The notes below the pieces were generated by a model. That model ran no database searches and had not been told where the DNA came from. It saw nothing but the letters and a program-made list of their open reading frames with translations. 64,000 nucleotides of DNA from assembly GCA_009995545.1 (NCBI GenBank), contig JAACPI010000003.1, positions 5,781-69,780 of the forward strand, given 5' to 3'. The position numbers were made by a program, and so were the translations under genes. Within the stretch, counting starts at the first letter, position 1; each line of letters begins with the position of its first letter. Source of the stretch: a bacterium. Lineage in GTDB: Bacteria > Patescibacteriota > WWE3 > 2-01-FULL-39-13 > JAACPI01. Shown in pieces: positions 9,888 to 27,070 of the stretch.

Positions 9888-11915
9888 GTGAAACTGTCCA
9901 AAAAAATAGCATTACCTTTATACTCAATTACCTTAATTCTTTTTGCATTGTCGCCTTTTTATATACTAGACAAATACTTAAATACCCAACAAAAAATTTT
10001 AAACACTGGAAGTGTTTTGGGGGATACAAGTTGTAGTTGTGATTGTGGTGGGAGTCCTGGGAGTTATACCGATGTATATTGTGGGGCGAAAGGATCTGCA
10101 GGCTACCAAGAAATTAGTGGTACTTGCTACGAAATACAGGGTCACTGTAACGCAGATGCCTCTGATGACGGATCCTCATGTAACGCAAACCACTACTACA
10201 CTACGCAAGGTTCCTCTGTAGACTCATCAAACTGTGGTTCCGGAGGTGGTGGAGGTGGAGATACTTGTAACATAAGCAGCTGTGCGGATGCAGGTGGGAA
10301 GGTTTGTAACTTTGGAGTTCCAACATCCTGTAGTGGTATGAACCAATCTTTGTGTAGCACTCACGCAGGTTCAGATTGTTTTTGGACAGGATCTAGCTGC
10401 ACCTGTGATCCTAACCAAGGAAACACCGGGGGCGAGGGAGACTGCGGGTTTAACATAACTTATTCAGATAGTCATGCCTGTAGCGGAGGTAATAGCGCTT
10501 CTTTAACAGCGACAATCACAAAAAAGGACCCTTCAAAATGTACCCAAGCCCTAGACGTAGATATAAATGCGGGCTCTTTTAGTTGCCCAGGAGAAGACTA
10601 TGCTGACGGAACTTGTAGAACTTGTGGTGGAGGATCAGGCAAAACAACAGTTACTATCCCCGCTAACGAGGCATCTAAAACACACTCAGTAAGCTGCCAA
10701 GTAGAAAATAACTGCGGCTCTTGCCAGGTAGACATTAACGGTACAGGCACACTTGTATACGATAACTCTGGATGTGGGCCTGTTGTAACTCCAGGACCTC
10801 AACCAACCTACTATGATATAGGGGGAAAGGCCTATTGTGTAATAAAAAGTACTGGTCAAAAAGAGTATAAAGGGGGCATAGATATCTCACTTGGGGGAAC
10901 TAAAATTGCTACTACAGATGGTTCAGGATCTTGGGCTGCCTCTAAAGAAGCGAGCACGTTGATTAACACATATATTAGACCTACCGGAGGATCTAACTTT
11001 CCTAATGCTTCTGCAACGGATCAAAGCACAGGGGTGAACAATGGAATTAATTGTACAGATAGCAATGTCGAAGGAGCAACTCGCAGAACCGAGGGAGTAG
11101 TAGAATCTGTAGGTTGTAAAAGAACAATTCCTACTAATGAGATTAATTTTAACCTAGGGTACTGCCCAATTCCAGATTGCACGAGTATCCAGGGCCCTAA
11201 AGACCTAATAGTTGGACAGCCCGCAACCTACAATGTTTCATTTTCTAAATCTGTGCCTAATGCCAAAGTCACTGGAGTTGGAATTTCTATAATCGACGGG
11301 AGTATAAATGCAGGAACCCAAGTATGTAGTTCAGATAACCAACCTGGAAGATACATTGTACAAGATGCCAACAACAATACCTCAATAAATTCTTTTAGCT
11401 GGACACCCAAAGCTACAGGCACATTTTCAATATACGGAAGAATCTGGAATGATGGTATTACCGAATGTAAAGCCGCGTGCGTTGACGGACCACCAAGATA
11501 CGAGTGCCAAAGTGCTACAAGTTGTCGAACGGAAGTAACAGTTAAAAACCCAGAGGTGCCTGTGCCTAATTTTAGCTGTGATGATTTACTTATGAGTTTC
11601 GAGAACGCTTCGGGGGCAGTTGAGTACAACGAAACATCACCAAATATACCCAAAGGTTATACCGGAAATATAATACTAACCTGTAAAGCCAGTTCCGCTA
11701 GTACCACAAAAATTGACAAAATAAAGTTTCAACTCTCGCTGAATGGAGCAATAGTTAAACAAGCTGACAATACAGATGTTAAGGAGGTAACAGTATCCGG
11801 AGAAAATAAACGTAAATTTGAGGCCACACAAAAGTTTGCTGTAAATTCAAAAGGAAAATACGAAGCAGATTCCATGGCATGTATTACCTTTGAAGGAAAT
11901 GAGTATTGTAATTAA
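9888..11915 (+). CDS. Large Cys- and Gly-rich secreted/surface protein
   Basis: N-terminal TM/signal segment. More than 50 Cys in CxC/CxxC-rich repeats. Gly-rich low-complexity run. Confidence 0.5.
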   Translation: MKLSKKIALPLYSITLILFALSPFYILDKYLNTQQKILNTGSVLGDTSCSCDCGGSPGSYTDVYCGAKGSAGYQEISGTCYEIQGHCNADASDDGSSCNANHYYTTQGSSVDSSNCGSGGGGGGDTCNISSCADAGGKVCNFGVPTSCSGMNQSLCSTHAGSDCFWTGSSCTCDPNQGNTGGEGDCGFNITYSDSHACSGGNSASLTATITKKDPSKCTQALDVDINAGSFSCPGEDYADGTCRTCGGGSGKTTVTIPANEASKTHSVSCQVENNCGSCQVDINGTGTLVYDNSGCGPVVTPGPQPTYYDIGGKAYCVIKSTGQKEYKGGIDISLGGTKIATTDGSGSWAASKEASTLINTYIRPTGGSNFPNASATDQSTGVNNGINCTDSNVEGATRRTEGVVESVGCKRTIPTNEINFNLGYCPIPDCTSIQGPKDLIVGQPATYNVSFSKSVPNAKVTGVGISIIDGSINAGTQVCSSDNQPGRYIVQDANNNTSINSFSWTPKATGTFSIYGRIWNDGITECKAACVDGPPRYECQSATSCRTEVTVKNPEVPVPNFSCDDLLMSFENASGAVEYNETSPNIPKGYTGNIILTCKASSASTTKIDKIKFQLSLNGAIVKQADNTDVKEVTVSGENKRKFEATQKFAVNSKGKYEADSMACITFEGNEYCN

Positions 11916-11917
11916 AA

Positions 11918-13915
11918 ATGAATATACAAGTAGAACAAAATAACAAAAGGATAATCAGTAATCAACCTAAAAACAAAGGAAAGGTTTGGAACGTCTTATT
12001 GGGTACCCTGGGTATTACTATGATCTTTTCTATAAGTTTTTTTGCAATAAAAAACTACCTAGTTAAAGAGACAGATATAAATTTTGTAGGTACAGACGCG
12101 TGTAGAGTAAGTTTTGAAATTCTTGAGGACTCTCTTCCGCCAAGCATCAGTTGTGCGAAATTAATCAACGGATCCCCTTCTAGTGAGCAAGACCCAACCT
12201 ATGTAGAAAACGGCAGTGAATTCTTTTACACTCTAAAAGCTAAAAATACAGGTTTAACCCCCGTTTTTGTAACTAAATTTGATGATTCTTTCAGTACTCT
12301 TAACACAAATAACTATGTTAAATTTTTAGAGATTACAGACTCGTCGGGTGTTAGTTGCACACTCGAACCAGTAAATATTTTAAACTGCACAGTAACAACA
12401 ACAACTTTAAACCCTGACCAAGAAATTTACGTAACTATAAAAACTAAGGCGATTGCAAAAACAGATCAAGATTCAATTATCAACGGCATAAAGGTAGAAG
12501 CTAGTAATGTAGAACAAGATAAAAATATAAATAAAGAATGTGTTTCAGCTCTAAAAGTAGTACAAACAGTTTATACAAAATTTAGTTGCACAAAAGAGTT
12601 TACAGACGCCTCAGTGTCTATCGGAAAATCCCAAAATGCTAGCATTAAACTATTCTCAAGTACAACTACAAACAATACAGATGTAAAAAGTAATGAGGTA
12701 ATTTTTGATAAGGATATAAATAAGATCGACACCTTGCAGGTTTTAGACCCTCTTTATAATTACCCTGTATTTAACAATAAAAACACGAGTTGGCTTACCC
12801 TACCTATAATAAAAGAGGGATATCCCAAATGCGAAATAAAGGAGATACCCGATAAAGGCAAAGAAGTATTTTGTATTCAAGATAATGTAATTTTTGAAAC
12901 AGGAAAAAACTTACTAGAATTTAGCTCTACAATAGTAGACAATGCCACCCCTTCAGAAGACATTATTAACTCCTCCGCCCTAAATATTGTTGTTAATGGG
13001 AGCGCGCAAACAGTTTATTGTAGTGATACAGTTAAAGTATTGGAAAAAGAAGAGTCTAATCTAGAGTGCTCAAAATCTTTTTATAACGAAATGGGAGAAA
13101 AACTTGATGACAAGGCAAAGGTCAGTGCTGGTAAAAAAATACTAGCTAAAATCGAAATTAAAAATAAGGGAAACACCTTACTAGAGGGAGTTAAACTGAA
13201 AGATCCTTTAGACAAAAGCTATAAATCAGAAGGCGCACAGAACTTGAATTACTTACAATATAAAGAAATATCTAGTAGCAGTTCACAAGAAACAAAAGAT
13301 AAATGTAATATTAACAGTAAAAAAGATGAGGTTACTTGCGAAAATATTAAGATCAATCCTGGGGAATCTACCACACTATACACCTTATTAAAGTTACAAG
13401 AATCAGTAGAAGATAAAAAACAGGTTATAAACGTAGCTAAAGTTGAATATACCGATAGTGAGGGGAATAAATTGCAAGGTTACTGTAAAGATAATTTTGA
13501 AACTAATGCTAAAGAAGAATCTACCCACTTAGAGTGCAGTAACAGTGCTTGTATAACAGTCGATGGTTCAGGAGAAGACGGATGTGCAACTGATGCAAAC
13601 TGCTCATACACAACTTGCGAAGGAAACAGCTGTACGCAAAAAGAATGTACAAGTGGCAACTGTAACAGCAGTTGTACTGCGGACAATGACTGTGTTACAG
13701 GTCAGCAAAGTCACCTGATTTGTCAAAATCAATCCTGTGAACAGGTTTTAGGTGCAGGTATAAGTAAGTGTTCTAATAATAACGACTGTAGCTTAGAAGT
13801 ACAAAAACCAATACCAGATACTGGAAAAACAGACTACACTATTTACCTAGCTTTAAGTGCATTAGGTATAGGTTTATTTGTTAGCTTAATACTTTTTAGA
13901 AAATCTAAAGTTTAA
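11918..13915 (+). CDS. Cell-surface protein with a C-terminal sortase-type sorting signal (IPDTG, hydrophobic stretch, RKSKV tail), Cys-rich EGF-like repeats and DUF11-like beta repeats
   Basis: The C-terminus PIPDTGKTDYTIYLALSALGIGLFVSLILFRKSKV is a classic LPXTG-like tripartite signal. Starts 3 nt after the preceding gene, so an operon is likely. Confidence 0.5.
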   Translation: MNIQVEQNNKRIISNQPKNKGKVWNVLLGTLGITMIFSISFFAIKNYLVKETDINFVGTDACRVSFEILEDSLPPSISCAKLINGSPSSEQDPTYVENGSEFFYTLKAKNTGLTPVFVTKFDDSFSTLNTNNYVKFLEITDSSGVSCTLEPVNILNCTVTTTTLNPDQEIYVTIKTKAIAKTDQDSIINGIKVEASNVEQDKNINKECVSALKVVQTVYTKFSCTKEFTDASVSIGKSQNASIKLFSSTTTNNTDVKSNEVIFDKDINKIDTLQVLDPLYNYPVFNNKNTSWLTLPIIKEGYPKCEIKEIPDKGKEVFCIQDNVIFETGKNLLEFSSTIVDNATPSEDIINSSALNIVVNGSAQTVYCSDTVKVLEKEESNLECSKSFYNEMGEKLDDKAKVSAGKKILAKIEIKNKGNTLLEGVKLKDPLDKSYKSEGAQNLNYLQYKEISSSSSQETKDKCNINSKKDEVTCENIKINPGESTTLYTLLKLQESVEDKKQVINVAKVEYTDSEGNKLQGYCKDNFETNAKEESTHLECSNSACITVDGSGEDGCATDANCSYTTCEGNSCTQKECTSGNCNSSCTADNDCVTGQQSHLICQNQSCEQVLGAGISKCSNNNDCSLEVQKPIPDTGKTDYTIYLALSALGIGLFVSLILFRKSKV

Positions 13916-13950
13916 TTCTACTGGAGTAAATAAAAAAACAAAGTCACAGC

Positions 13951-14646
13951 TTAGTACTTATAAGTATACATAGTTATACCTTTATTCTTAGAAATAGTCA
14001 GATAACTAGCATGCTGTTTACCAACAAAGCCAGGATTAGCGTACAGTCTATTTAACTCTCTATAATGAGTGTGTCCAAAAATAACCCTCTCAAATTTTCC
14101 AGACTCTTTAGAAAATGCCTTAAAGATACTTAAGTTTATATCTTTTAAGTAAGAAACTTCTTTTTCAAGCGTTTCTAGTTTTGGTTCTAAATTGGAAACT
14201 ATTCTGTCGTAGTAAAGTAAAAGGATTTTTGTAACGATGCGTGGCATAAGATAGAGGTAATAACGAACATCTATACTTTTTAAATGTAAATGGCCGTGTA
14301 AAAATGCGTATCTTTTCCCATAAATATTTTTAACTACATACCTACCGGAAGTATACTCAATATTTTTTAAAAATGGAAAATCAAAATCTTTATCATGGTT
14401 ACCTCGTATAAATAAACACTTTTTTTTGTCTAAAACTTGAAATAACTCCAAATACTTATAATAAATGGCATTGGGAGAACTACGGTAACCCTCGAACAAA
14501 TCACCAACAACTATTATTTTAGAGTACCGATTAAATAAATCAGTCAGAAAATGTATTTTATTAAGAGGGGTTTTATCTGTTAAATGTAAATCAGATATTA
14601 CTAAATAGGACATGGTATGGTATAGTATATCGCAAAATGGACACAA
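13951..14646 (-). CDS. Calcineurin-like metallophosphoesterase
   Basis: Motifs ISDLHL, VVGDLFEG, GNHD, GHLH, GHTH. Confidence 0.7.
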   Translation of the reverse strand: MCPFCDILYHTMSYLVISDLHLTDKTPLNKIHFLTDLFNRYSKIIVVGDLFEGYRSSPNAIYYKYLELFQVLDKKKCLFIRGNHDKDFDFPFLKNIEYTSGRYVVKNIYGKRYAFLHGHLHLKSIDVRYYLYLMPRIVTKILLLYYDRIVSNLEPKLETLEKEVSYLKDINLSIFKAFSKESGKFERVIFGHTHYRELNRLYANPGFVGKQHASYLTISKNKGITMYTYKY

Positions 14647-15977
14647 ATGAAGGCCAAAAAAATTTATCTTTTAATGAATACACACCCAATATGTATTCTC
14701 TTCGACCATTTGTTCAAGACAATGCACCTGAAACTACCAAAACACTTATAGATCCATTTATTAGCGACTTTTCTGACTCTACTTATATAGCTGCAGCTAT
14801 GCTTCTTACCCCGGAAATTTTAGGGACTCTTACTAATTTTTTGTTGCATAAAAAAACAACTCGAAGATCCCTACTGCTAGGAATGGGAATCGCAGCTGCT
14901 GGTATGGTTAAATTGGCAGATACCGCAGATCTAGCTGAAAGGTTGTTAAGCTATTATGAAAACGAAGGTCGTGAAAATATGTTTGCAGAGAGAACCCTGT
15001 TAAGGTCACCGGAGCTTGCTTACTATAAATTATACCTAGATACAGTCGCTACCTTTGATTACCAGAGTAGACTTAAAAATCAATCAGTCCTAGAGTCTCC
15101 AAAGCAGGAGTTTTCAGACACAGGTGATTACCTGGAAATGACTTTTTTACAACGAAACAAAGAAGTAAAATTTTTTGGCTACAGATCCCAAAAACCTATA
15201 AGTATAGACCTTGACGGGAGTTATTTAGCTCAAAATGCTAGGCAATTTCACTCTATGAGTAATCAAAAGTGTTCCTGCTTTCTAAATGCCACCAGCCTAT
15301 CAGCAATTGAGTGGTCTAAGGCTATAGCGATCGGAGAAACGGAAATGTCCAAACCGGAAGAAAAAATAGTTTATGGTTCTGAAAGCCTATTTGTTTACCA
15401 AGCACTGCATAAAAATTCTCCTGTGTGGGAACATGCAAGATATCTCATGACCCACAATCACCCAAACTTTTCGGAGCTTACCCTACGACCGGGTAATAAA
15501 AATCAGCACGCAGTTGTAGCAAACGAGGCGGGTGAAATGTCCGTAGTTTCAAACGTAGTGCTGTCAGAATGGGTGAAAAATAAATTTTTACCAAAAGGTA
15601 TAAAATACGCATGGTTACCTCAATTTTGTTTTGTACCCGATCAAGAAGGTATTAACTACGACATTCCCTTTAACGACTTACATCACAGAATGCTGTCTTT
15701 ACTAGCCTACGATGGGCAACAAACATATTTAATCTCGGGAAAGCCCGATTATTTCTGCACTCCTTGGGACATTAGAGATGTCGTTAAATATTTTCAAGAT
15801 GCTTATAAAACTAAGTTTAAATTTGTAGCGTGCACAGATGTAGGTTTAGCAGGAGGTTTTAATATTTCTGATGACAATAGAAATGTATTTAAACCTAGCT
15901 TAGAGGGATTTTGCTCAACTGGAAAAGTTTTACCAAAAGCTTTAGATCATACGGCCTCTGTAATATTGGGAATATAG
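14637..15977 (+). CDS. Hypothetical protein
   Basis: 446-aa ORF, divergent from the phosphoesterase. No motif recognised. Confidence 0.4.
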   Translation: MDTNEGQKNLSFNEYTPNMYSLRPFVQDNAPETTKTLIDPFISDFSDSTYIAAAMLLTPEILGTLTNFLLHKKTTRRSLLLGMGIAAAGMVKLADTADLAERLLSYYENEGRENMFAERTLLRSPELAYYKLYLDTVATFDYQSRLKNQSVLESPKQEFSDTGDYLEMTFLQRNKEVKFFGYRSQKPISIDLDGSYLAQNARQFHSMSNQKCSCFLNATSLSAIEWSKAIAIGETEMSKPEEKIVYGSESLFVYQALHKNSPVWEHARYLMTHNHPNFSELTLRPGNKNQHAVVANEAGEMSVVSNVVLSEWVKNKFLPKGIKYAWLPQFCFVPDQEGINYDIPFNDLHHRMLSLLAYDGQQTYLISGKPDYFCTPWDIRDVVKYFQDAYKTKFKFVACTDVGLAGGFNISDDNRNVFKPSLEGFCSTGKVLPKALDHTASVILGI

Positions 15978-16088
15978 TGTGGTTTTGTAAACAAGCTAGG
16001 CTTGTAAACTGTATACCACACAATCAAGGATATACCTTGAAACAGTTTAGTTACTATCGTGCACTAGTGCAAAATAGTAAATTACTCT

Positions 16089-16727
16089 TTAAAGCAGCTC
16101 TACCACCTCCTTGGCCCTATCTAAAGTATTACGAACCTTTTGAACGGATTCAGCATATTCCTCAGGTAATCCCGCGGGGTAAAGACGCGTTAACCACAAG
16201 GGACTAATCAGACATAGAGAAAAAGAATCGACGTACATACCACCGGACCGCCTCACACGAGGATTACGACCTGTAATATGGTAGCCGACGCGCTCAAGAG
16301 CCTTTCTGGAGCCAAGATTTTCAATCATAACCTCAGACTGAATAGTCGCACGGTCAAGATAGGTAAGCGCGTACCAAGTGCGTGCCACATGGGCGCGGCT
16401 TGCAACACCTTTTCCCCACCAACTAGGGTCACAGATAATAATCCCAGTGTGACAACTGTTAGAACTATTTATATCGTGAATCCCGGTAGAACCAACGACT
16501 TTACCGTGCCCTTCAGGCTCGATTGCCCAGTAGACATCTTCGTTCTCCTGAGCCTTGTCAAACCACTTCTCCTCCATCTGTTGAGTGAAACCTCGGGACT
16601 GCAGAGTGTACTCATGAACTCTGGGACTGCTAAACATGTCAGCAAAGTAACCCATCTCCTCACGTTTAAAAGGACGAAGATTGATATAGAATCCGTCCCA
16701 ACCAACTTTGAACTTAGGTCCAAACAT
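16089..16727 (-). CDS. GNAT N-acetyltransferase (RimJ/RimL-like)
   Basis: GNAT core GHGKVVGSTGIHDI...GIIICDPSWWGKGVASRA...IQSEVMIENLGSRKALERVGY. Strong SD (AAGGAG) 8 nt before the ATG. Locally ~50% GC against the ~32% background. Confidence 0.7.
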   Translation of the reverse strand: MFGPKFKVGWDGFYINLRPFKREEMGYFADMFSSPRVHEYTLQSRGFTQQMEEKWFDKAQENEDVYWAIEPEGHGKVVGSTGIHDINSSNSCHTGIIICDPSWWGKGVASRAHVARTWYALTYLDRATIQSEVMIENLGSRKALERVGYHITGRNPRVRRSGGMYVDSFSLCLISPLWLTRLYPAGLPEEYAESVQKVRNTLDRAKEVVELL

Positions 16728-16871
16728 GTGATTTCTCCTTTGATAGTGGCTGTAGTTGAGTTGTTAAAGAGCTTCTTTGTTCTTTAGTTGTCTTTGTATT
16801 TCCTTAGCTACAAAGGGTTTAAAGAACCAAAAAAGCCTTCAAATAGAGATTTATTAAGTGAAAATAAGCAC

Positions 16872-16896
16872 AAAAAAAGCCTCCGTTTGGAGGCTT
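16872..16896 (-). terminator. Hairpin (AAGCCTCC-GTTT-GGAGGCTT) followed by a T7 run on the minus strand
   Basis: Seen directly in the sequence. Which transcript it ends is unclear. Confidence 0.35.
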
Positions 16897-17220
16897 ATCC
16901 GGGTGTTTAAAGGGGGGTTAAATCTTAGATAAGCCACAAACTTGCGCAATAACCTGCATAACAGGGTTTAAACCCGCTGTTGCAGAAATATTAAGTTTGC
17001 AGTTCCATCTAAAATAGTTCATATCTAGGATATTATAACTGTTATTTCTACTTAATCAAGTACTATAGGGTGTTTATTGAATTAATAACAAATAACACAT
17101 ATTGTAAAATAACCCTGTCTAATGGTTTATAGTACGATTTAAGTGGAAAACTACGGATTAAAACGTTATAATCTAGCAGGCTAAGCCTAAGTATCCTGAA
17201 TACGGGGGTTAGCTATTTAT

Positions 17221-17298
17221 GGTGGCTGTAGCTCAATTGGTTAGAGCGCCGCTTTGTGGAAGCGGAGGCAGTGGGTTCAAATCCCATCAGCCACCCCA
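17221..17298 (+). tRNA. tRNA-His (anticodon GTG) with encoded G-1 and 3' CCA
   Basis: Hand-folded cloverleaf. Acceptor GTGGCTG/CAGCCAC, with an extra 5' G pairing the discriminator C, which is the His hallmark. D-stem GCTC/GAGC. Anticodon loop TTGTGGA. T-arm GTGGG-TTCAAAT-CCCAT. Confidence 0.85.
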
Positions 17299-17330
17299 CC
17301 TTAAAATCCTTTACCTAAGCCATCTGTAGT
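17274..17330 (+). repeat. att-like repeat copy 1: tRNA-His 3' half plus 32 nt of downstream flank
   Basis: Near-identical copies at 18716-18776 and 19813-19866. Confidence 0.7.
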
Positions 17331-17496
17331 GGTATAAAACACTACTGATAACTACTGCCACTTAGGCTAGTCTTTATTGCAGACAAGCACTTTTGTTCGG
17401 ATATCATCCTACAACAAAAGAGCACAGACATTTTCGCCCTCGAAGAAGGAGTCGCATTTTCACAGACACACAAGTATACAACTCTAGTCATTGAGC

Positions 17497-18648
17497 TTAA
17501 AGATTTTCCTTAATCCATAGATTTAGAGGATCCCTCTGTTTGATATAAGACTCTACAGTGATCGGGATAGGAATATTTGGCTTGAGTACATCTAGGTCTT
17601 GTCCAGGCAATAACTCAAAATACTTATACGAACACTGAACTTCAATTTTAGAGTTTGGCAGGACTATGTCCTTTCTATCACCAAATCTATTAGGCTTTTG
17701 TCCTGCATTTTCTCCAATTAGCACTGCGTTTTTATGTTGTTTCAAAAAAAGCGTATGATGCATGGCAGACGAAAATGTTTCTCTACCGATTGCTACATAC
17801 GTTGGAGTATTATCTGGGAAATTTTCGAAGGAGTCTTCCATAACACTAGTATCACCTCCGCCGTTAAGGCGTAAGTCTACAATAATGCTCTTTGCTTTAG
17901 AGGCTTCGAGAGAAAGAACTTTTTTAAACTTCTTCAGTTCATTCTCAGTGTGTCCTCTGTTGTTACAAGCATTGTACTGAAATACAAGGGTTTCTTCTTC
18001 CATGCGAAGCCTATACGTATTGTTTCCTGTGTAGGTGGGATTTTTAATGTAATCAGATTTCTTCCAAGTTAATGGTTTCAGTACAATTGCATTTTGAAAT
18101 TCTTCCTCAGTTCCTTTGTTAATTTCAAAACTCCCTTCAGACGTCTCTATATTTAATAAGTCTTTCTTGCTCACATCTATATATTTGAGAATATTGTTGG
18201 ATTGTAGATAGATCGAAACATCTCTAAACAGAACCTCTAAGTTCTCTTGTGAAGACAGCTTTGCTATTCTCTTGGTAAGTTCTTCAATCGAGATATCATT
18301 TATGCTTAAAAGTTTCTTTCCAAGAAAAGCTTTTTTGTTTTCTGTGATACCTACGATGTGGAGAATATCTCCTATAAATATGTATTTTATAGGAAATAGG
18401 GACCCTCCTATTCTAGTAACTTTTGTATGGGCGTCTCTCAATAACACTAAAGCTTCTTGAATAACGTACCTCATCTCCTCTTCAGTACAATCAAGAGTTT
18501 TGGACAATTCCTTTTCGAAGTCCTTTTTTTCAACATTTTTATAAGGATCACAATGTATTTGTTCTATCCCAGATACTAAGTATTTAATGTCTTCCTTCTT
18601 TTCCTTAGTAGTTAATTGGGTAGATTTTATGTTTTTGCTCATTTTCAA
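17497..18648 (-). CDS. S41-family (C-terminal processing/tail-specific protease-like) peptidase
   Basis: DLRLNGGGD and GRETFSSAMHH...NAVLIGE resemble the S41 DLRNNGGG and Ser-containing catalytic blocks. Confidence 0.55.
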   Translation of the reverse strand: MKMSKNIKSTQLTTKEKKEDIKYLVSGIEQIHCDPYKNVEKKDFEKELSKTLDCTEEEMRYVIQEALVLLRDAHTKVTRIGGSLFPIKYIFIGDILHIVGITENKKAFLGKKLLSINDISIEELTKRIAKLSSQENLEVLFRDVSIYLQSNNILKYIDVSKKDLLNIETSEGSFEINKGTEEEFQNAIVLKPLTWKKSDYIKNPTYTGNNTYRLRMEEETLVFQYNACNNRGHTENELKKFKKVLSLEASKAKSIIVDLRLNGGGDTSVMEDSFENFPDNTPTYVAIGRETFSSAMHHTLFLKQHKNAVLIGENAGQKPNRFGDRKDIVLPNSKIEVQCSYKYFELLPGQDLDVLKPNIPIPITVESYIKQRDPLNLWIKENL

Positions 18649-18715
18649 GTTATATCATAATAGTATCTATATTATACAATTACTCTTATCAAAATCTCTA
18701 TTTCACCAACTATTT

Positions 18716-18776
18716 GGTTCAAACCAAAAATCTATCAGCTACCCCACCTTAAAACCCTTTACCTAAGCCATTTGTA
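18716..18776 (+). repeat. att-like repeat copy 2 (degenerate tRNA-His 3' end plus flank)
   Basis: GGTTCAAACCAAAAATCTATCAGCTACCCCACCTTAAAACCCTTTACCTAAGCCATTTGTAG versus the tRNA's GGGTTCAAATCCCATCAGCCACCCCACCTTAAAATCCTTTACCTAAGCCATCTGTAG. Confidence 0.7.
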
Positions 18777-18914
18777 GGCGTCATAACATACCCCTATGAG
18801 ACTTACTTGAACTCCTAGACTTCCGAACCTAAAAATATTTTAAAATGAATATTACTGAAGCTTATTGGTTGTTATTAATTTTGTTATTTGAAATAAACTT
18901 GTTAAAATTTTCTT

Positions 18915-19760
18915 ATGGATATGAACTTACTTGAGGAAAAATTTAAAGGACTTCCAGATCATAAAAAAGTTGCTTTTAAAGCATTAAAATATTTAAGTGA
19001 GTCTCCAGATGTAATAGGATTGTACTTATCTGGATCTTTTGCAAAGGGTCTACCAGACATATATTCTGACTTAGATATAAATATACTAGTTGATCCCACA
19101 AAGCGAGAAAAGATAGTTAAAGAGCACCAAGAAAACCTAATTAAAAATGTAGGTAAGATAGCCACTTTATTTCCCGCAACTCACTTAGGTGACCCTAACC
19201 AAATAATCGTTTTTTATGAAGAAGGCGTACCAATTCACGTAGATTACCAATATAGAGTACTGGAAGATCTTTTACCCACTTCAAAAAATAAAGATGTATT
19301 AGTCTTATTTGACCCTGGAGGTGTCTTAACTGAGTGGAAAAGTAAGTGCTTAATTGCTAAACCTGAGACCCTACCGATTAACGATAAAATGCAATATTTT
19401 GAAGATAGATTTTGGGGTTGGTGCGCCTACACGGATGCAAAAATTGAAAGAGGTGAACTGTGGGAATCTAGAGACGCTCTTGAATACTTAAGATCTAATG
19501 TACTAGTTTCTTTGGCTTATTTTAAGCTCGGATTACCAAATGAAGGAAATAGGAGGCTAGAGTCTAAATTCCCTACCGATATACTTAATTCACTAACCAG
19601 TACTGTTCCTTTGGGCTTGGATAAAAATTCATATAAAGATGCTTTACTAAGTACGATTGAAGGCTACACAACTCTTTTCAGGGATGTCTCTAGCTTAAAC
19701 ACCACTAACAAAACCACCCTAGCGGATCGCGAATATTTTATCCGCTCGATCAAAAGCTAA
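18915..19760 (+). CDS. Nucleotidyltransferase-fold protein (ANT/aminoglycoside-lincosamide adenylyltransferase-like architecture)
   Basis: GS...D.D NTase motif (LSGSFAKGLPDIYSDLDINILVD) plus a C-terminal helical domain. 281 aa. Confidence 0.5.
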   Translation: MDMNLLEEKFKGLPDHKKVAFKALKYLSESPDVIGLYLSGSFAKGLPDIYSDLDINILVDPTKREKIVKEHQENLIKNVGKIATLFPATHLGDPNQIIVFYEEGVPIHVDYQYRVLEDLLPTSKNKDVLVLFDPGGVLTEWKSKCLIAKPETLPINDKMQYFEDRFWGWCAYTDAKIERGELWESRDALEYLRSNVLVSLAYFKLGLPNEGNRRLESKFPTDILNSLTSTVPLGLDKNSYKDALLSTIEGYTTLFRDVSSLNTTNKTTLADREYFIRSIKS

Positions 19761-19770
19761 TACACAGATT

Positions 19771-19866
19771 AGACAAACAAATACTCCTTCACAAACACTT
19801 TCGTTCGAGTATCGTTCAATTGCCGACCCCCACCTTTAAAACCCTTTACCTAAGCCATTTATACCG
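19771..19866 (+). repeat. Composite repeat R1/copy 3: AAACAAACAAATACTCCTTCACAAACACTTT block, pseudo-tRNA 3' half, then the tRNA downstream flank
   Basis: Left half matches 22901-22945. Right half matches 17296-17330 and 18741-18776. About 50 nt downstream of it also resemble the sequence after copy 2. Confidence 0.65.
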
Positions 19867-19933
19867 ATTGTAAAACACCCTGATGGGACGTTACTCGAAC
19901 TCATAGGATTGGAAATCAAAAATCACCCAGGTT

Positions 19934-21247
19934 CTAAGGGGTAAGTCTTTTAACTCCCCTATAGAGATAGGTCACTTCTCTCACATTTGGAATATCAAAT
20001 ATTTTCATTAACATTCTTGTAGGACCAAACCCAATTCCACCATGAGGAGGACAACCATACTTAAAAAAGTTTAAATAATGTTGTAAGGGCTCCAAGTGGA
20101 GACCTTTCTCTGTAGCTTGTTTTATTAAAACGTCATAACGGTGTTCTCGTTGCGCACCCGTTGTAATTTCAATACCGTTCCAAAGTAAGTCAAAACTTTT
20201 AGTTAATGTTGGATCCCCATCAACGCGCATATGATAAAAAGGTCTGACATCAATTGGGTATTCTGTAACAAACACAAACTCGTGCCCCTTTTCTTTCAAA
20301 ATATACTCAGATAATCTTCTTTCTTCTTCTGGACTTAAATCTCCGTCTTTTTCACTTGGAACATTAAGTTTCTTTAGTATCTTCTTAGCCTCAGACATAC
20401 TTACCTTAGGAAAAGGTGTGGTAGGAATTACTAATTTTCTACCATAAGATTTTTCAATCTCAGCCCCAAACTTTTGCTTAAGCTTCTCTATAACAAACCG
20501 TAGCATACGTTCCTCTTGCTCCATAACATCGTAGTGAGACTTTATAAATGAAATTTCAAAGTCGTAGCCTGTAAACTCAGTATCGTGCCTAGAAGTAAAG
20601 GAGGGATTAGCCCTAAACACCGGACCCACCTCAAATACCTTCTCAAAACCAGAGGCCATAGCCATTTGCTTATAAAACTGTGGGGATTGAGCCAAATAGG
20701 CAACTCTATCAAAGTATTTAACCTCGAATAGTTCAGCACCGGATTCACTAGGTGTGCTCATAAACTTAGGGGAGTGTATTTCCATAAACCCATCGTTTAC
20801 GAAAAACTCTCTCATGTATTGCTCCATCCAAGTCCACACTTTAAAAATAAGTGCTTTTTCAGGTTTCCTAAGGTCAATCCATCGCCAGTCTAATCTCGTG
20901 GGTTGCTCTGTTTCTGCATTACTTTTATCTATTATGGGAATTGGCAATTTTGGATCTGCTTTAGAAAGCACGGTTATGCTATCAATCTGAAGTTCCACCC
21001 CATTAGGGGCCTGTCTCTCCTCTTTTATAACCCCTATTACTTCTATTACAGACTCGTTAGCCAAGTCAGAAATTATTTTAAATGCCTCAGTCTTTTCTTC
21101 ACCGACTACTAATTGGGCAATACCAGTAATATCCCTTAGTAAAACGAATTTTATTCTCCCTTGGTCACGAATAGTGTGCACCCACCCCATCATAGTTACT
21201 TCCTCAGAGATTTTAGATTTTATATCTTGAACGTATACCCTTTTCAT
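19934..21247 (-). CDS. aspS: Aspartyl-tRNA synthetase, archaeal/eukaryotic type (no GAD insertion, 437 aa)
   Basis: N-terminal OB anticodon-binding domain. Class II motifs (FRANPSF, GGIGFGPTRM). The length is typical of the archaeal-type enzyme. Confidence 0.85.
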   Translation of the reverse strand: MKRVYVQDIKSKISEEVTMMGWVHTIRDQGRIKFVLLRDITGIAQLVVGEEKTEAFKIISDLANESVIEVIGVIKEERQAPNGVELQIDSITVLSKADPKLPIPIIDKSNAETEQPTRLDWRWIDLRKPEKALIFKVWTWMEQYMREFFVNDGFMEIHSPKFMSTPSESGAELFEVKYFDRVAYLAQSPQFYKQMAMASGFEKVFEVGPVFRANPSFTSRHDTEFTGYDFEISFIKSHYDVMEQEERMLRFVIEKLKQKFGAEIEKSYGRKLVIPTTPFPKVSMSEAKKILKKLNVPSEKDGDLSPEEERRLSEYILKEKGHEFVFVTEYPIDVRPFYHMRVDGDPTLTKSFDLLWNGIEITTGAQREHRYDVLIKQATEKGLHLEPLQHYLNFFKYGCPPHGGIGFGPTRMLMKIFDIPNVREVTYLYRGVKRLTP

Positions 21248-21600
21248 AAATCGTTTTCTTAATTACGTAGGGGTAAGTTTAAAAATACCCAAACGGAACA
21301 AAAAGCTAAAAAAGCTAAATTGATAATCCGTAAGGGCGTAGTAGAGTACTAACAGTACCTAATGTTACGCGGTGCCACCTCACTTTTTTCTAATGTTCTC
21401 ATTAGAAACTCTCACCTCAAACTAATAAGGTTTAACGCTGTAATGGGCGTTCCCATGGGGTTCTAATTTCGTAAAGATTTCTTCCCCAAGCTCATCGGTG
21501 TTTGCCGAATCATAGCTATATACGGTAATTATATACCTTTTGTCAAATTACTTCAAATAACCTCTCAAAGGATAGTAAACAAAAGAATGGAGCGAGAGAA
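21248..21600 (-). promoter_or_regulatory. Candidate T-box riboswitch leader of aspS
   Basis: The minus strand at 21383-21365 reads GTGAGGTGGCACCGCGTAA. This matches the T-box core AGGGUGGNACCGCG with N=C, which would pair a G73 discriminator. It lies ~120 nt upstream of the aspS ATG. A further 450-nt untranslated leader with raised GC follows. Confidence 0.4.
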
Positions 21601-21689
21601 CAGAACTGAAAAATACTGTTAAGACACAAATTAAGTAAAAATCATGTTAGCGTACTGTACAAAAAAGATACACCTTAACAAAAGCTTTA

Positions 21690-21760
21690 GTTCGAACAAC
21701 GTCCCATTGCCGACCCCATCATCCTATAGTATTTACAAATAACTCCTATTTTGATATAAT
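21690..21760 (+). promoter_or_regulatory. Repeat R2: pseudo-tRNA-His 3' half (GTTCGAACAACGTCCCATTGCCGACCCCA), CCTATAGTA, then promoter TTTACA(21732-21737)-N17-TATAAT(21755-21760)
   Basis: Near-consensus sigma70-type spacing. Orientation fits the downstream + genes at 21816 and 22068. Confidence 0.6.
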
Positions 21761-21815
21761 TACCCTAATATAGCAATCCGGCTATAAATTGGATTAAGAG
21801 TTTCAGGAGGGAAAT

Positions 21816-21998
21816 ATGCCGAATAGAGGTTGGTCGAAGAAGCGCTTGTTAAGTGCAGGGGCATTTCTAGCCACTTTGCTGATCTTCGCGATCCAGGCTG
21901 TAGTGGCAAAAAATGGAAGCCCCGATGACGTCGTGCTGGTCTCGGCCTTAATGGTGATCGTAACAGCCTATCTGGTGATTTTTGTACCAGGGAAATAA
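21816..21998 (+). CDS. Small membrane protein (60 aa, two TM helices)
   Basis: Strong SD (GGAGGGAAAT-ATG). Local GC ~50%. Downstream of the R2 promoter. Confidence 0.4.
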   Translation: MPNRGWSKKRLLSAGAFLATLLIFAIQAVVAKNGSPDDVVLVSALMVIVTAYLVIFVPGK

Positions 21999-22067: not shown

Positions 22068-22862
22068 TTGGATAATCTAGAAAGGAGGTTTATCCTTCAA
22101 AAAAGATTGTTCAACCATTTCCGTGTAGTAAAAATCTTTTTAAAAATGCTTAAAAATTACACAAAACCATACTTACAGGAAATTGCCCATAATGTAATTG
22201 ACGAAGAAAAAGAATCCCGTACCGGTTACCAGGATATAGAAGTACAAGATGGTGAGCTATTTGACCCTTCATATGCTGAGTGGGAAATAGCAGAAAGTTG
22301 GGAGAGGCATTTGAAAATTTCTTTATCCACAAGGTTAGAAGAGGACAATATTGAAAATATACAAAAAACAGGAAAATTCCTGGCCACTTTCTTTGTAACA
22401 TTAGAAGAATTAAGAAAAAAATACAATTTTGAGAAAGCTATACCAGTAGGTGTTGTCTATAAATATACGGAAAAACGCAACCAAAAATTTATTATATTAG
22501 CAGACGAGGAATCTGGGACAATACACATATCATTTTTTGACTTAAACAGGCTACTAACAAAACCTCCCACCAAAGTACAAGCAGAAGGAACAACTTACAG
22601 TGGTACTTTAGAAGACTTTGCAAAGTTGTGCGCCGCAGAAGAGTTTTACCATATTGCTCACCCAGAATACGAGCAAAATATACTAGGTAATGTAAGCGCT
22701 GGTGTAAATTTGGTAGACTATGATGCACAAGAGGCTGAGTTTAACGCACTCCTTTTTCAACTCCACAATGCAATAGAATGGGATATGCCAGAACATACAG
22801 TAGAAAATATACGACAAAGGATTAATAGAGCTAAAAAAATTAGAGACAATCGGATTAAATAA
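22068..22862 (+). CDS. Hypothetical protein, paralog of 27172-27903. The ORF-track start is TTG, so the true start is uncertain.
   Basis: Shares FLATFFVTLEELRKKYNF...ILADEESGTIHISFF and VDYDAQEAEF...LLFQLHNAIEW blocks with the 27172 ORF. Confidence 0.45.
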   Translation: MDNLERRFILQKRLFNHFRVVKIFLKMLKNYTKPYLQEIAHNVIDEEKESRTGYQDIEVQDGELFDPSYAEWEIAESWERHLKISLSTRLEEDNIENIQKTGKFLATFFVTLEELRKKYNFEKAIPVGVVYKYTEKRNQKFIILADEESGTIHISFFDLNRLLTKPPTKVQAEGTTYSGTLEDFAKLCAAEEFYHIAHPEYEQNILGNVSAGVNLVDYDAQEAEFNALLFQLHNAIEWDMPEHTVENIRQRINRAKKIRDNRIK

Positions 22863-22885: not shown

Positions 22886-23004
22886 ATTAAATCCCCCACT
22901 CTAAACAAACAAATACTCCTTCACAAACACTTTGGTTCTAGTATCGTCCCATTGCCGACCCCATTATCCCATAGTATTTACAGGTATACCCTTTTATCGT
23001 ATAA
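22886..23004 (+). promoter_or_regulatory. Repeat R3, the full composite: ATTAAATCCCCCACT, AAACAAACAAATACTCCTTCACAAACACTTT, pseudo-tRNA 3' half, then TTTACA(22976-22981)-N17-TATAAT(22999-23004)
   Basis: Same architecture as R2, R4 and R5. Left parts recur at 19771-19812 and 29731-29765. Confidence 0.6.
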
Positions 23005-23060
23005 TTATTGTGTAACTGAATTTCGAGTTACATAGTCGTTTTAGCACGAGGAGAGAAGAA

Positions 23061-23435
23061 ATGAAAAGGTTAAACCTGATGTTTTTTTTCCTAGTCTTGG
23101 CAAGCCTCCTATTACAAGGCTGTGCCAGCTTCGGCAATACGAAGGTGAAAGATGCAGTCGTTAGGGACTGGATATTTTCAGTCGAAACACGAGTAAACGG
23201 GGTGACTACCGTTTGGCTCAGGAACGATGACACCGGGGTCTACTGCTTCACTAATGATATCGCTACTGCGAAGCAGCTAGAAGACCTCATGAAGTCGGAT
23301 CGAATGGTCACATTCCGGTACGGTGATGTAAAGTTTTTCAATAACAATCCGTGCTCTGGAGCAGAAGTAAGTGTCGATGGGAGTGGTTTCCACACCTTTG
23401 TTGTCACCCAAATCGTAGGGGACTTAAAGGAGTAA
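23061..23435 (+). CDS. Small lipoprotein (lipobox LLLQGC)
   Basis: MKRLNLMFFFLVLASLLLQGCASF. Higher GC than the host. SD GGAGAG. Confidence 0.5.
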   Translation: MKRLNLMFFFLVLASLLLQGCASFGNTKVKDAVVRDWIFSVETRVNGVTTVWLRNDDTGVYCFTNDIATAKQLEDLMKSDRMVTFRYGDVKFFNNNPCSGAEVSVDGSGFHTFVVTQIVGDLKE

Positions 23436-23565
23436 CTTAGATGAGCGGTAAGGACCGGCGGAAGATCCAACATGGATCGCCACGGAATATCTGACAAAAG
23501 TCAGACGCACATATAACATCCTTACAGTAGTACAATTTTTAGAACACTACCCTCTCCCTAACGAA

Positions 23566-24180
23566 TTAAAAGTTCGGTATTTTAATAATAATTCCCTCTT
23601 CAAGTAAAGAATCAGAATCTATATCCAGTAAATTTATTTTACTTAGTTTTTCTGCGTAGCTGGTTGAACCAAAAAATAACGTTGAAAGATTATTTAGGTT
23701 TTTAGGAGTATTTTTATTATTTACTTTATATGTAAAAACTTCAGAGTGCTGTTTTATGTCTTTCTCAAAAATTGGGTTAAAAACCATATCTTTTAACGAG
23801 GACTTGGAGATATCTCTAACTTCAAAATGTAAGTGAGGCTCTAAACAAGCCTCTCCTGTATCACCAGAGAACCCTATAACATCTCCAGTTTTAACTATTT
23901 GAGCGAGATTAACTGAAAAGACGCTTAGATGGGCATAAAGAGCTACTATATTACCATTTCTAATTGAAACAGTATTACCCATACCTTTATGAAATTCTTT
24001 TCTTACGACAATACCCCTGAAAGAGTTTAGTATTTTAGTTCCAACTGGAATATCAAAATCTAACCCAGGATGTTTATTACTGAAAATTTCGTAAAACTTC
24101 CCCTTATCGGAGTCCCCAGTAAAGTCTTTGCCAAAAGTGACAGATATTTTACCCTGTTCCAGAAGTTTTTGTAACTTCAT
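23566..24180 (-). CDS. M23-family metallopeptidase (lysostaphin/LytM-like)
   Basis: HxxxD and HxH blocks (GLDFDIP..., GDTGEACLEPHLHFEV). Confidence 0.7.
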   Translation of the reverse strand: MKLQKLLEQGKISVTFGKDFTGDSDKGKFYEIFSNKHPGLDFDIPVGTKILNSFRGIVVRKEFHKGMGNTVSIRNGNIVALYAHLSVFSVNLAQIVKTGDVIGFSGDTGEACLEPHLHFEVRDISKSSLKDMVFNPIFEKDIKQHSEVFTYKVNNKNTPKNLNNLSTLFFGSTSYAEKLSKINLLDIDSDSLLEEGIIIKIPNF

Positions 24181-24216
24181 ATGCTTATTTTAACACCAGA
24201 GGAGTGTAACAGGCTA

Positions 24217-24296
24217 AACAAACATTTTCGTTCGAATATCACTCCATTAACGTCCCACCCTATAGTATTTACACCGAACCTCATTTGACATATAAT
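24217..24296 (+). promoter_or_regulatory. Repeat R4: TTCGTTCGAATATC...CGTCCCACCCTATAGTA, then TTTACA(24268-24273)-N17-TATAAT(24291-24296)
   Basis: Same promoter module. Faces the + gene at 24387. Confidence 0.55.
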
Positions 24297-24386
24297 ATAT
24301 GTATTTAGTGGCAATTCGATGCACTAATCAGAACATTCAAAACCTGTTACTTAATAATTGATTTTCTAGCATATAGGAGAAGAGAG

Positions 24387-25619
24387 ATGTCAGATCGAAG
24401 ACTTGGCGCATGGGACTGTGAGTATTGTAGTCGCACCAAAATCTGGGGAAATGTATATACATGTCCAGGATGTGGTAACCCAAGGAGCAAGGGAGTGAGG
24501 TTCTACCTACCCTCTGATGCCCCTTTGGTGACACCGGAGATTGCAGAACAATTGGGGTCCGGAGATCCTAACTGGTATTGCGAACATTGTAATTCCGGAA
24601 ACACAGACACCAGAGATATTTGCTGGAACTGTGGAGCTCCGAAGGGATCTTCTCCCGTACATGAAACAAAAAATTTCATGGAAGGACAGACCCCCCGAAG
24701 TACTGCACAGGCTCGAGCAGCAGATCCAGATGGACGGTCTTGGGTGGCAAAAAGTGATAGAAACGGCCGAACCACTACAACTTCACCTTCAAGAGAACCT
24801 AATAAGCCTGAGCAATATAGTTGGGCTTCTCTAGTGAGTTCTCCGAAGACGTTCACTAATCAGGCTAAATCCATAATAAGCTCGGGGAAAAATCCAGCTT
24901 ACTTAGGGGCAGCTCTAGGGGTTTTGGGAGCAATTCTGATAGCATTTCTAAGCTACAACCTGTTCTTTAAACCCCACGAGGAAACTGCTATAGTTAGCTC
25001 GTTCCAGTGGGAACAGAGCGTGGTTTTACAGCAGTTTTCCACCGTTCGCGAAACAGCATGGACAAGTACACCCTCAGGGGCGTACAACATCCAATCTGAC
25101 TACAGGGATACTGGCCGCGATCTAAAAGTCCACGACGGATGGGAGACAGTCAGTTACTCGGACACTTGTTACCGTAGCGAAAGCTACACCGACACGTGCA
25201 CCAGGTCTGTCTACAACTCCCGGACGTGTACAGGGAATCGCGACAATGGAGACGGATCCTTCAGCAGTTATACCTATGACTGCGGGAGCAGCGGTACGGA
25301 GACATACTCGTGTAGTAAAACGAGAAGTGTCCCATATAGCTGCACCAAGACCCGTCAAGAAGAGTTGTACCATTATGAGGACATATGGGACAACTGGCAC
25401 GAGTTCGACATTGATAAGTGGACCCATGTGACAACGTATCCCACACGGGGTAATAATCACAGACCCCACTTTCAAGAGGTAAATCTCCAAAACCCCTACT
25501 TGGGTGGGAACCCGATACTTGGTCAGCAGAAGCTGATTCAGATCCCGGGAAGCTATTCCATAACCTTTGCGTGCGAAAACAAAAAATCACTCGGCTCGTT
25601 CTTAAACCAAAATTTTTAA
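24387..25619 (+). CDS. Membrane protein with two N-terminal cytoplasmic CxxC...CxxC zinc ribbons, one TM helix, and a Ser/Thr/Tyr/Cys-rich extracytoplasmic domain
   Basis: CEYCSRTKIWGNVYTCPGCGNP and YCEHCNSGNTDTRDICWNCGAP. TM helix AYLGAALGVLGAILIAFLSY. GC ~48%. Several antisense ORFs are artefacts of that GC. Confidence 0.5.
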   Translation: MSDRRLGAWDCEYCSRTKIWGNVYTCPGCGNPRSKGVRFYLPSDAPLVTPEIAEQLGSGDPNWYCEHCNSGNTDTRDICWNCGAPKGSSPVHETKNFMEGQTPRSTAQARAADPDGRSWVAKSDRNGRTTTTSPSREPNKPEQYSWASLVSSPKTFTNQAKSIISSGKNPAYLGAALGVLGAILIAFLSYNLFFKPHEETAIVSSFQWEQSVVLQQFSTVRETAWTSTPSGAYNIQSDYRDTGRDLKVHDGWETVSYSDTCYRSESYTDTCTRSVYNSRTCTGNRDNGDGSFSSYTYDCGSSGTETYSCSKTRSVPYSCTKTRQEELYHYEDIWDNWHEFDIDKWTHVTTYPTRGNNHRPHFQEVNLQNPYLGGNPILGQQKLIQIPGSYSITFACENKKSLGSFLNQNF

Positions 25620-25683
25620 ACAAACAAACTCTAACAAATACTTTTAAATAGTAAATTTCTGAAGTATTTTAAATACATGAACC

Positions 25684-25998
25684 TTGGTGATTTTATTTCC
25701 TTTGCAAGTCTGGGGGGGGGGCGAAATTGGTTTTGATGGTTTAACGGTATCAACAAATTTTGGAGAAATAATGTTATACTCCGGGTATGCCCACAGTGAT
25801 AAATGCAACAGGGTTTTTTGTAATTTCGCAGACACAAACGAGCAGATAGAGTGTGTCTACAACACTAGCGGGGAATTACTAATTTTTAAAAAAGACGACA
25901 AAGTATTATTTCAATTAGAGACAGGTATAGAAACTGATCCGGCAATCGAACTCAGAAGTAGCAATAATTGGTCTCTCGGGGCTTATTGGACCAGGTAA
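25684..25998 (+). CDS. Possible small protein (104 aa) whose 5' end contains the G10 tract. The start may instead be the internal Met, after the tract.
   Basis: ORF has protein-like composition. No homology recognised. Confidence 0.25.
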   Translation: MVILFPLQVWGGGEIGFDGLTVSTNFGEIMLYSGYAHSDKCNRVFCNFADTNEQIECVYNTSGELLIFKKDDKVLFQLETGIETDPAIELRSSNNWSLGAYWTR

Positions 25999-27065: not shown

Positions 27066-27070
27066 AGACC

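Follow-up and report, generated by a model that had tools for sequence, protein, structure and literature searches.

Junction-like repeats delimit a tandem array of integrase-less gene units downstream of tRNA-His in a WWE3 (Patescibacteriota) genome

INTRODUCTION

Tandem genomic islands at the ssrA gene of Dehalococcoides are bounded by 20-bp repeats with additional sequence conservation around them, and some of these islands, which have no integration module, were proposed to be cis-mobilizable (McMurdie et al. 2011, PMC3146451). Cis-mobilizable elements (CIMEs) keep the attachment (att) sites attL and attR but have lost the genes for integration and transfer (Pavlovic 2004; Bellanger 2011; reviewed in PMC5704250), and accretion arrays grow when a new element integrates into a resident element's att site (PMC5704250). 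In the tycheposon islands of Prochlorococcus, new elements push older ones inward and partial tRNAs are left behind (Hackl et al., 10.1101/2020.12.28.424599). Here, we analyzed a 64 000-nt stretch of a WWE3 (Patescibacteriota) genome (assembly GCA_009995545.1, contig JAACPI010000003.1, positions 5781–69 780, forward strand), referred to below as the window, and describe an array of 10 kb (17.27–27.12 kb) on the 3′ side of its tRNA-His gene, in which at least seven junction-like repeats, a number to be read as a lower bound, delimit six units (X1–X6) of 1.1–2.8 kb with one to three genes each.

The locus resembles the Dehalococcoides islands in that tandem units lie downstream of one small stable-RNA gene and are each bounded by a direct repeat of its 3′ end, and in that conservation beside the repeat, which cannot be aligned to the RNA gene, marks the insertion point. 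However, the Dehalococcoides islands are 10–30 kb long and mostly carry a serine-recombinase module, whereas the units described here are 1.1–2.8 kb long and none of the six (0/6) encodes a recombinase; moreover, the core of the repeat is 6 nt rather than 20 nt, and a housekeeping aminoacyl-tRNA synthetase is found inside the array only here. As in CIMEs, X1–X5 are flanked on both sides by junctions and have neither recombinase nor transfer genes. CIMEs arise by decay from integrative and conjugative elements (ICEs) or integrative and mobilizable elements and lie beside an integrase-bearing relative, whereas no such partner element was found inside the window. Bacteria of the Candidate Phyla Radiation (CPR) are not known as hosts of ICEs. 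The streamlined genome, the tRNA-adjacent location, the proposed displacement of older material and the scattering of degenerate remnants are reminiscent of tycheposons, but those elements are 10–20 kb long and encode a tyrosine or serine recombinase as well as a replication module (primase/helicase), and none of these hallmark genes occurs in the array.

RESULTS

Repeats of the tRNA-His 3′ end and its trailer

A single tRNA gene, tRNA-His(GTG), was detected in the window by ARAGORN and Rfam. Its 3′ end and ~50 nt of trailer were repeated at ~18728–18818 and ~19828–19906 (repeat search and MAFFT alignment), and further related copies were found at 21.7, 22.9, 24.2 and 27.1 kb by a window-wide repeat search. 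A profile built from copies c2–c7 recovered exactly seven copies in the window, all on the + strand at 17.27–27.12 kb (nhmmer, E = 7e-27 to 6e-8, against E ~0.1 for the next match in the window), and the genuine tRNA end (c1), which had not been used to build the profile, was recovered at E = 6e-8. All seven copies are located on the 3′ side of tRNA-His, with copy-to-copy spacings of 1448, 1087, 1887, 1245, 1291 and 2819 nt. In the following lines, each copy is given with its core and arms, LB being a class of left arms and RA and RB being classes of right arms.

17222–17298, + strand: tRNA-His(GTG) (ARAGORN; Rfam RF00005, 69.8 bits), on which the array is anchored; ACCCCA, its terminal 6 nt, is at 17293–17298
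17274–17349, + strand: junction c1; genuine tRNA 3′ end, core, RA right arm (CCTTAAAATCCTTTACCTAAGCCATCTGTAG...TAAAACAC)
17382–17409, + strand: possible stray fragment of an LB left arm, GACAAGCACTTTTGTTCGGATATCATCC (nhmmer, E = 0.065–0.1, not significant alone)
18688–18818, + strand: junction c2; its own left arm with a ~20-nt tRNA-His-like stretch AAATCTATCAGCTACCCCA, core, RA right arm; its right end bears a GTTCAAGTAAGTCTCAT-like motif in inverted form
19772–19906, + strand: junction c3 (mosaic); LB left arm, core ACCCCCA, RA right arm; the left-arm motif recurs in inverted form at 19881–19911
21657–21769, + strand: junction c4; LB left arm, core, RB right arm
22902–23012, + strand: junction c5; LB left arm, core, RB right arm
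24204–24304, + strand: junction c6; LB left arm (more diverged), core TCCCA, RB right arm
27060–27122, + strand: junction c7, last of the copies; left side unrelated, core ACCCTA, RB promoter arm

The initial annotation had described three direct copies of the tRNA end (c1–c3) that delimit two tandem cassettes, with c2 and c3 being 85–90% identical to c1. The presence of the three copies was confirmed by the repeat search, the MAFFT alignment and a 30-nt core, CTTAAAACCCTTTACCTAAGCCATTTGTAG, which matched the window with up to three mismatches only at positions 17300, 18748 and 19835; 0.00 matches were expected in 100 shuffles, and a chance origin of the three repeats was therefore ruled out. 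The proposed level of identity was reached by c2 (17279–17337 versus 18728–18786, ~88% over 59 nt) but not by c3 (17294–17349 versus 19828–19884, ~79% over 57 nt), and the likeness of the right flanks of c2 and c3 was borne out (18742–18818 versus 19828–19906, ~81% over 79 nt; all by local alignment). The locus proved to be larger than two cassettes, since seven junctions and six units, including one with an aspartyl-tRNA synthetase (AspRS), extend to 27.1 kb. Regarding the signature of integration into a tRNA 3′ end, a common core ACCCCA at which the arms switch was indeed found, but the best-conserved part of the repeat is the trailer or flank rather than the tRNA. The tRNA-derived part is ~20 nt of the acceptor/T-arm strand in c2 (P ~0.003 versus random 25-mers) and ACCCC(C)A alone in c3, in which the remainder is not significant alone. 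As the identity enters the flank, it is not confined to the tRNA gene, and a widespread REP-like (repetitive extragenic palindromic) element, which had also been considered, is not indicated by the search results: there were no other copies in the window, and a 21-nt core yielded only two matches in 596 Gb of genomes and one in metagenomes, the latter (L003) being the locus itself.

One of the two genomic matches (L001) lies inside a methyltransferase coding sequence and is at chance level. The other is a 26-nt exact match to the c3 core, TTTAAAACCCTTTACCTAAGCCATTT, at positions 1392–1417 of CAJCJB010000181.1 (L002), within an intergenic spacer of 58 nt; this contig is Bacteroidota-like and was binned as Saccharibacteria. 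The match exceeds the length expected from chance extension of a 21-nt query.

Arm classes that switch at a common 6-nt core

We compared the arms of the seven copies over 55 nt on each side, anchored on ACCCCA (99th-percentile score of the null distribution, 10). This 6-nt core, the 3′ terminus of the tRNA, is common to all seven copies, with the variants ACCCCCA, TCCCA and ACCCTA. The left arms of c3, c4, c5 and c6 belong to one class, LB (scores 11–45; 50 of 55 positions identical between c3 and c5), and the left sides of c1 (the tRNA), c2 and c7 are mutually different. The right arms are divided into RA, shared by c1, c2 and c3 (scores 25–29), and RB, shared by c4–c7 (scores 17–26). These classes occur in different combinations, LB being joined to RA in c3, the tRNA to RA in c1 and an unrelated left side to RB in c7, and every switch of arm class, in all three kinds of breakpoint, is located on ACCCCA. 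The mosaic c3 illustrates this: its left arm is 93% identical to that of c5 (score 45), its right arm scores 29 against that of c2, and a profile built from c4–c7 only detected just its left half, with the match stopping at ...GACCCC. The possible LB fragment at 17382–17409 may be a remnant of a lost junction.

The LB arm contains a tRNA-His-like stretch, TCCCAT-TGCCGAC-C-CCA, in the same register as CCCAT-CAGCCAC-C-CCA of the tRNA, preceded by GTTCGA and ~5 extra nt. Since c2–c6 have non-tRNA features in common (GTTCRA followed by an insertion of ~5 nt, and a distal left arm of ~30 nt), they appear to be copies of a common template rather than displaced, once-functional tRNA ends.

The RB arm includes a predicted strong, near-consensus σ70-like promoter, CCTATAGTATTTACA-N17-TATAAT. 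In the window, the motif CCTATAGTATTTACA is confined to the four RB arms, and the predicted promoters are located 45–90 nt upstream of + strand genes (c4–c7). The repeats are more conserved than the adjacent genes: the right arms of c4 and c7 are 81% identical, compared with 34% for the paralogous proteins encoded downstream, which suggests that the repeats are constrained or were recently exchanged, and were not neutrally co-duplicated. Single-stranded DNA folding of all copies on both strands was not better than that of shuffled sequences (z = +0.3 to –1.8), and no stem was shared among them. Inspection of the arms by eye only, for LexA, dif and other known binding sites, revealed nothing convincing.

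Gene content of the units

The genes of the units, and the gene that directly follows the last copy, are as follows.

17497–18648, – strand: X1, S41-like peptidase, 381–383 aa (Pfam PF03572, 33.6 bits, only aa 233–276)
18915–19760, + strand: X2, nucleotidyltransferase (NTase), 281 aa, ANT(6)/Adenyl_transf-like (Pfam PF01909, NTP_transf_2; PF04439)
19934–21247, – strand: X3, non-discriminating AspRS (Pfam tRNA-synt_2, OB fold)
21329–21522, – strand: X3, T-box-like leader of AspRS (Rfam RF00230)
21816–21998, + strand: X4, membrane open reading frame (ORF) of 60 aa (ORF list)
22068–22862, + strand: X4, 264-aa protein, no family recognised (Pfam, PHROGs)
23061–24180 (span of the unit), + strand: X5, lipoprotein-like ORF of 124 aa, 46% GC
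23566–24180, – strand: X5, M23 peptidase (domain search)
24387–27065: X6, 410-aa zinc-ribbon membrane protein (+ strand, 48% GC), 104-aa ORF (+ strand) and 352-aa protein (– strand)
27172–27903, + strand: 243-aa gene directly after c7, outside the last junction

Between the first three copies, each cassette contains one gene, S41-like on the – strand and NTase on the + strand, and neither here nor elsewhere in the window is a recombinase encoded; both statements of the initial annotation on these points were correct. Among the ~50 ORFs of the window, no match to phage integrase (Phage_integrase), resolvase, transposase or excisionase families was obtained with Pfam or PHROGs. The possibility of a hidden recombinase among the uncharacterised proteins of the array was rejected, as neither Pfam, with the threshold relaxed to E = 5 for these proteins, nor PHROGs lent it support. 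The array cargo had no matches among PDB sequences.

The S41-like family of X1 (~374 aa) is found mostly in CPR genomes, and the best non-self homolog is 59% identical. Homologs of the X2 NTase are at most 61% identical and are spread across several phyla. A second nucleotidyltransferase (NTP_transf_2 + DUF4037) is encoded at 30205–31020, 3 kb past the array, without flanking repeats. The T-box-like leader upstream of AspRS matched the full length of the model with 55.1 bits (E = 4.5e-10; gathering score, 93). The 264-aa (22068–22862) and 243-aa (27172–27903) proteins, each encoded behind an RB promoter, are paralogs (34% identity, E = 6e-45).

The 352-aa gene of X6 (26007–27065, – strand) has a 5′ poly-C tract at ~27027–27036, whose length varies by –2 to +1 nt among near-identical population contigs, and this variation moves the called start of the gene (323, 338 or 352 aa). 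Either phase variation or an error of homopolymer sequencing may account for it. The population contigs have another indel site at 25711.

GC content is raised in the 124-aa and 410-aa genes (46–48%). Just upstream of tRNA-His, a GNAT acetyltransferase gene (16089–16727, – strand) has a GC content of 47% (z = 2.6 relative to the genes of the window), which suggests that sequence on the 5′ side of the tRNA gene is foreign as well. Other genes of the window, which is a chromosomal piece, encode PBP1, UvrABC, HisRS, enolase, LexA and phosphoenolpyruvate synthase or pyruvate phosphate dikinase (PEP synthase/PPDK).

Homologs of the cargo at tRNA genes and between repeats in other genomes

In another genome, a homolog of the X2 NTase (P0124, 53% identical; L035/L036) starts 46 nt after tRNA-Ile(GAT), and a perfect 43-nt repeat of the 3′ part of this tRNA, from the anticodon loop to CCA, is located 13 nt past its stop codon. 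The insert is 917 nt long, consists of a single gene, contains no integrase and was found in two independent assemblies, one of which is NCBI GCA_964480825.1. Because the identity of the repeat ends exactly at the end of the tRNA, the insert, as judged from its sequence, displays the classical attL/attR pattern. A 990-nt contig from Logan SRR2177986 (L037), seen in two samples, has identical first and last 30 nt and consists of one 960-nt unit, i.e. the L035 NTase cassette with the 43-nt tRNA-Ile repeat, and the 30-nt overlap of its ends. This contig could be an excised circle or a loop in a de Bruijn graph of k = 31.

In Collierbacteria (LCKY01000017.1; L038), an NTase homolog starts 42 nt after tRNA-Gly(CCC). 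On the same contig, 1.5 kb downstream of this tRNA, a 64-nt direct repeat (3233–3296 and 5066–5129, 97% identical), which has no hairpin potential, brackets a single 562-aa gene. Thus, with the window excluded, NTase genes were directly downstream of a tRNA gene in two of four independent contexts (P ~0.01, a rough estimate that was not computed and that assumes ~1/20 of genes to be tRNA-adjacent).

The closest S41-like homolog (59% identical) is located inside an array of four 44-nt direct repeats (CTGGTGCACTATAAGCAACCAAGTTCGAACC...), at positions 1233, 3069, 5780 and 6674 of L041 (also L042), which separate units of one or two genes. A second S41-like context (L043) had neither intergenic repeats around the gene nor a tRNA gene.

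The array in the population and in related genomes

Many samples of JGI, ENA and Logan contain the same 20-kb stretch, in more than 25 contigs with an identity of ≥99.87%. These contigs differ by 0–15 single-nucleotide polymorphisms or indels per 13–21 kb, none of which is within the repeats, and the array is currently fixed in the sampled population. A 2.8-kb metagenome contig (L003, Ga0210054_1031077) is 100% identical to 17079–17591 of the window; the match covers the 143 nt before tRNA-His, the tRNA gene and part of the S41-like gene. The rest of the contig, joined at the point 143 nt upstream of the tRNA, encodes Bacteroidota-type proteins with type IX secretion system (T9SS) sorting. We rejected it as an alternative context, as it is probably a chimeric assembly and the order in the window is supported by more than 25 other contigs.

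AspRS of X3 is 78% identical to the nearest other sequence, from Parcubacteria, and a 77% match is named Candidatus Nomurabacteria. In the nearest relative (L024–L026, AspRS 78%), the interval from a pair of genes for ~675-aa proteins to AspRS contains HisRS, two unknown genes and a Fic protein gene, and the same interval of the window (9888–21247) contains metallophosphoesterase, GNAT, tRNA-His and the cassettes; hence, the interval is variable between species. Rearrangement in the nearest relatives prevented the reconstruction of an ancestral empty site.

DISCUSSION

The shared core ACCCCA, the single orientation of all copies, their confinement to the 3′ side of tRNA-His and the combinatorial use of the arms together fit stacked junctions of site-specific recombination, such as serial insertion at a tRNA 3′ end would produce. 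The explanation that we favor, with about even confidence, is the tandem accretion of integrase-less, cis-mobilizable-like cassettes at the 3′ end of tRNA-His. Each junction would consist of the left arm of the left-hand unit joined to the right arm of the right-hand unit, and the cassettes would have circular forms, each with one composite site (left arm, ACCCCA, right arm). Such a cassette would enter at the end of the tRNA or at a junction already present and push older units away from the tRNA, and the S41-like and NTase units, being nearest to it, would probably be the most recent. As the units encode no recombinase, the enzyme would be supplied in trans or have been lost; candidates are a recombinase encoded elsewhere in the genome, a helper element and a host Xer-like enzyme.

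By their lack of a recombinase, the units are equivalent to cis-mobilizable elements or decayed islands. However, a clean single-gene unit with a member of the NTase family is also present at another tRNA, an observation that speaks against the random decay of large elements, and six consecutive integrase-less units together with an NTase that recurs at different tRNAs suggest cassettes rather than such decay.

Several observations weigh against accretion by site-specific recombination. The mechanism is proposed from the anatomy of the repeats, with no recombinase found in the window, and no matching phage or plasmid attachment site (attP) was detected in viral contigs, since four scans of IMG/VR DNA with the core and the arms yielded nothing or chance matches in coding sequences; a protein-guided scan with the NTase alignment also found nothing. 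No empty-site, excision or cassette-order variants occurred in the ~25 population contigs, in which the order was identical. In the relatives with 77–78% identical AspRS, the locus has no tRNA or repeats, tRNA-His is located elsewhere, the neighbourhood is rearranged and the repeat profile found nothing. The similarity of c3–c6 to the tRNA past the 6-nt core is weak (P ~0.01 or not significant), the GC content of X1 and X2 is ordinary (z ~0) and thus gives no sign of foreign composition, and the conservation of the RB arms could be explained by regulatory selection. Finally, a housekeeping AspRS with its T-box-like leader within the array would be unusual for an island built by insertions. The AspRS gene could have become enclosed when units were inserted at secondary junctions, or else the history of the RB part of the array may be a different one.

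The principal alternative, which we consider unlikely, is that the repeats represent a regulatory module, in which a promoter (TTTACa-N17-TATAAT) and a ~60-nt upstream operator were copied locally together with genes and stayed similar under selection for a transcription factor in common; the likeness to the tRNA would then be marginal and the RA copies would be decayed. Such a module would be in agreement with the near-consensus promoters that c4–c7 place 45–90 nt upstream of + strand genes, with the paralogy of the genes behind c4 and c7 (264 and 243 aa), with the weak tRNA similarity of c3–c6 and with the fixation of the array in the population. However, c1 and c3 face the 3′ ends of – strand genes and have nothing to drive, and neither the mosaic c3 nor the three kinds of breakpoint on ACCCCA would be predicted. 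In addition, CCTATAGTATTTACA occurs nowhere else in the 64 kb, the repeats are 81–93% identical compared with 34% for the co-duplicated proteins, and the tRNA-flanked NTase cassette of L035 would be left unexplained. Homologous recombination, in which RecA would loop out a circle with one repeat that, after uptake, re-enters at whichever repeat is homologous, through one crossover of the Campbell type, and duplicates the homology, would dispense with a dedicated integrase, but we regard it as rather improbable. The homology shared by the copies is long (50–110 nt) and extends well past the tRNA, no recombinase is present, and the high identity of non-adjacent arms (50/55 between c3 and c5) would fit gene conversion; nevertheless, this process would not place every arm switch on one 6-nt core, RA and RB arms share almost only that core and so offer no substrate to RecA, and the 43-nt identity of L035, confined exactly to the 3′ part of tRNA-Ile, is the classical pattern of site-specific recombination.

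Two further explanations are highly improbable, their defining tests (folding and copy distribution, respectively) having failed. The array resembles an integron, or a cluster of attC sites lacking an integron integrase (CALIN), in that small promoter-proximal units with one site each, spaced at 1.1–2.8 kb, would have been inserted serially in one orientation beside a fixed primary site, with few genes between repeats of ~110 nt that would correspond to attC sites; c3 also has a long-range inverted repeat of 9 + 3 bp. Unlike attC sites, however, the repeats form no hairpin better than shuffles on either strand and owe their conservation to sequence, not to structure, the R″/R′ consensus boxes are absent from the copies, and the inverted motif is not found in c1 or c4–c7. 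A tRNA 3′ end serves as the primary site, the cassettes bring promoters of their own and occur in both orientations, and IntI is not encoded in the window. The inverted GTTCRAnTA motifs that terminate c2 and c3, ~100 nt apart, might instead suggest a dispersed element similar to REP sequences or miniature inverted-repeat transposable elements, or a tRNA-derived repeat, that is clustered here by happenstance; its chances are equally slight, since the copies in the window lie only at 17.3–27.1 kb and all on one strand, the 21-nt core is almost absent from genomes and metagenomes other than this one, no target-site duplications were seen, and the similarity runs past the inverted motifs.

Xer-dependent modules, i.e. 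integrative mobile elements exploiting Xer (IMEX) at dif and the pdif modules of Acinetobacter plasmids, encode no recombinase of their own and are moved by the host tyrosine recombinase at short conserved sites, namely flanking dif-like sites of 28 bp (XerC-6-XerD). IMEX elements form tandem arrays, and pdif modules are flanked by inverted sites, whereas the repeats described here are direct. No dif-like site with an 11-6-11 arrangement was recognised in the repeats, which were inspected by eye only. Both cargo families recur in repeat-delimited units (L035, L038 and L041), and this hints at an integron-like system of CPR bacteria. We thus mention, as a rather doubtful extension, an undescribed cassette system of CPR/Patescibacteria, in which a recombinase encoded at another locus, perhaps a Xer-like enzyme of the host, would place small self-promoted cassettes one after another at tRNA 3′ ends; the site of each cassette would be conserved in sequence, have a short core and form no hairpin.

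The genomes of CPR bacteria are tiny and have few recognised mobile elements, and little is understood of how accessory genes are gained and shuffled in them. The locus described here is a compact, tRNA-anchored array of six self-contained units that has the anatomy of recombination junctions and no recombinase, and its ANT(6)-like NTase cargo is also a clean single-gene insert at a different tRNA in another genome. Compared with known tRNA islands, it differs in its small scale, with six consecutive units of one to three genes, and in the lack of an integration module. The predictable junction sequences make the array directly testable in sequencing reads. If the array is only a fossil, it would be an ordinary decayed tRNA island with unusually small units; if the units are mobile, they would represent a minimal cassette-exchange mechanism for streamlined genomes.

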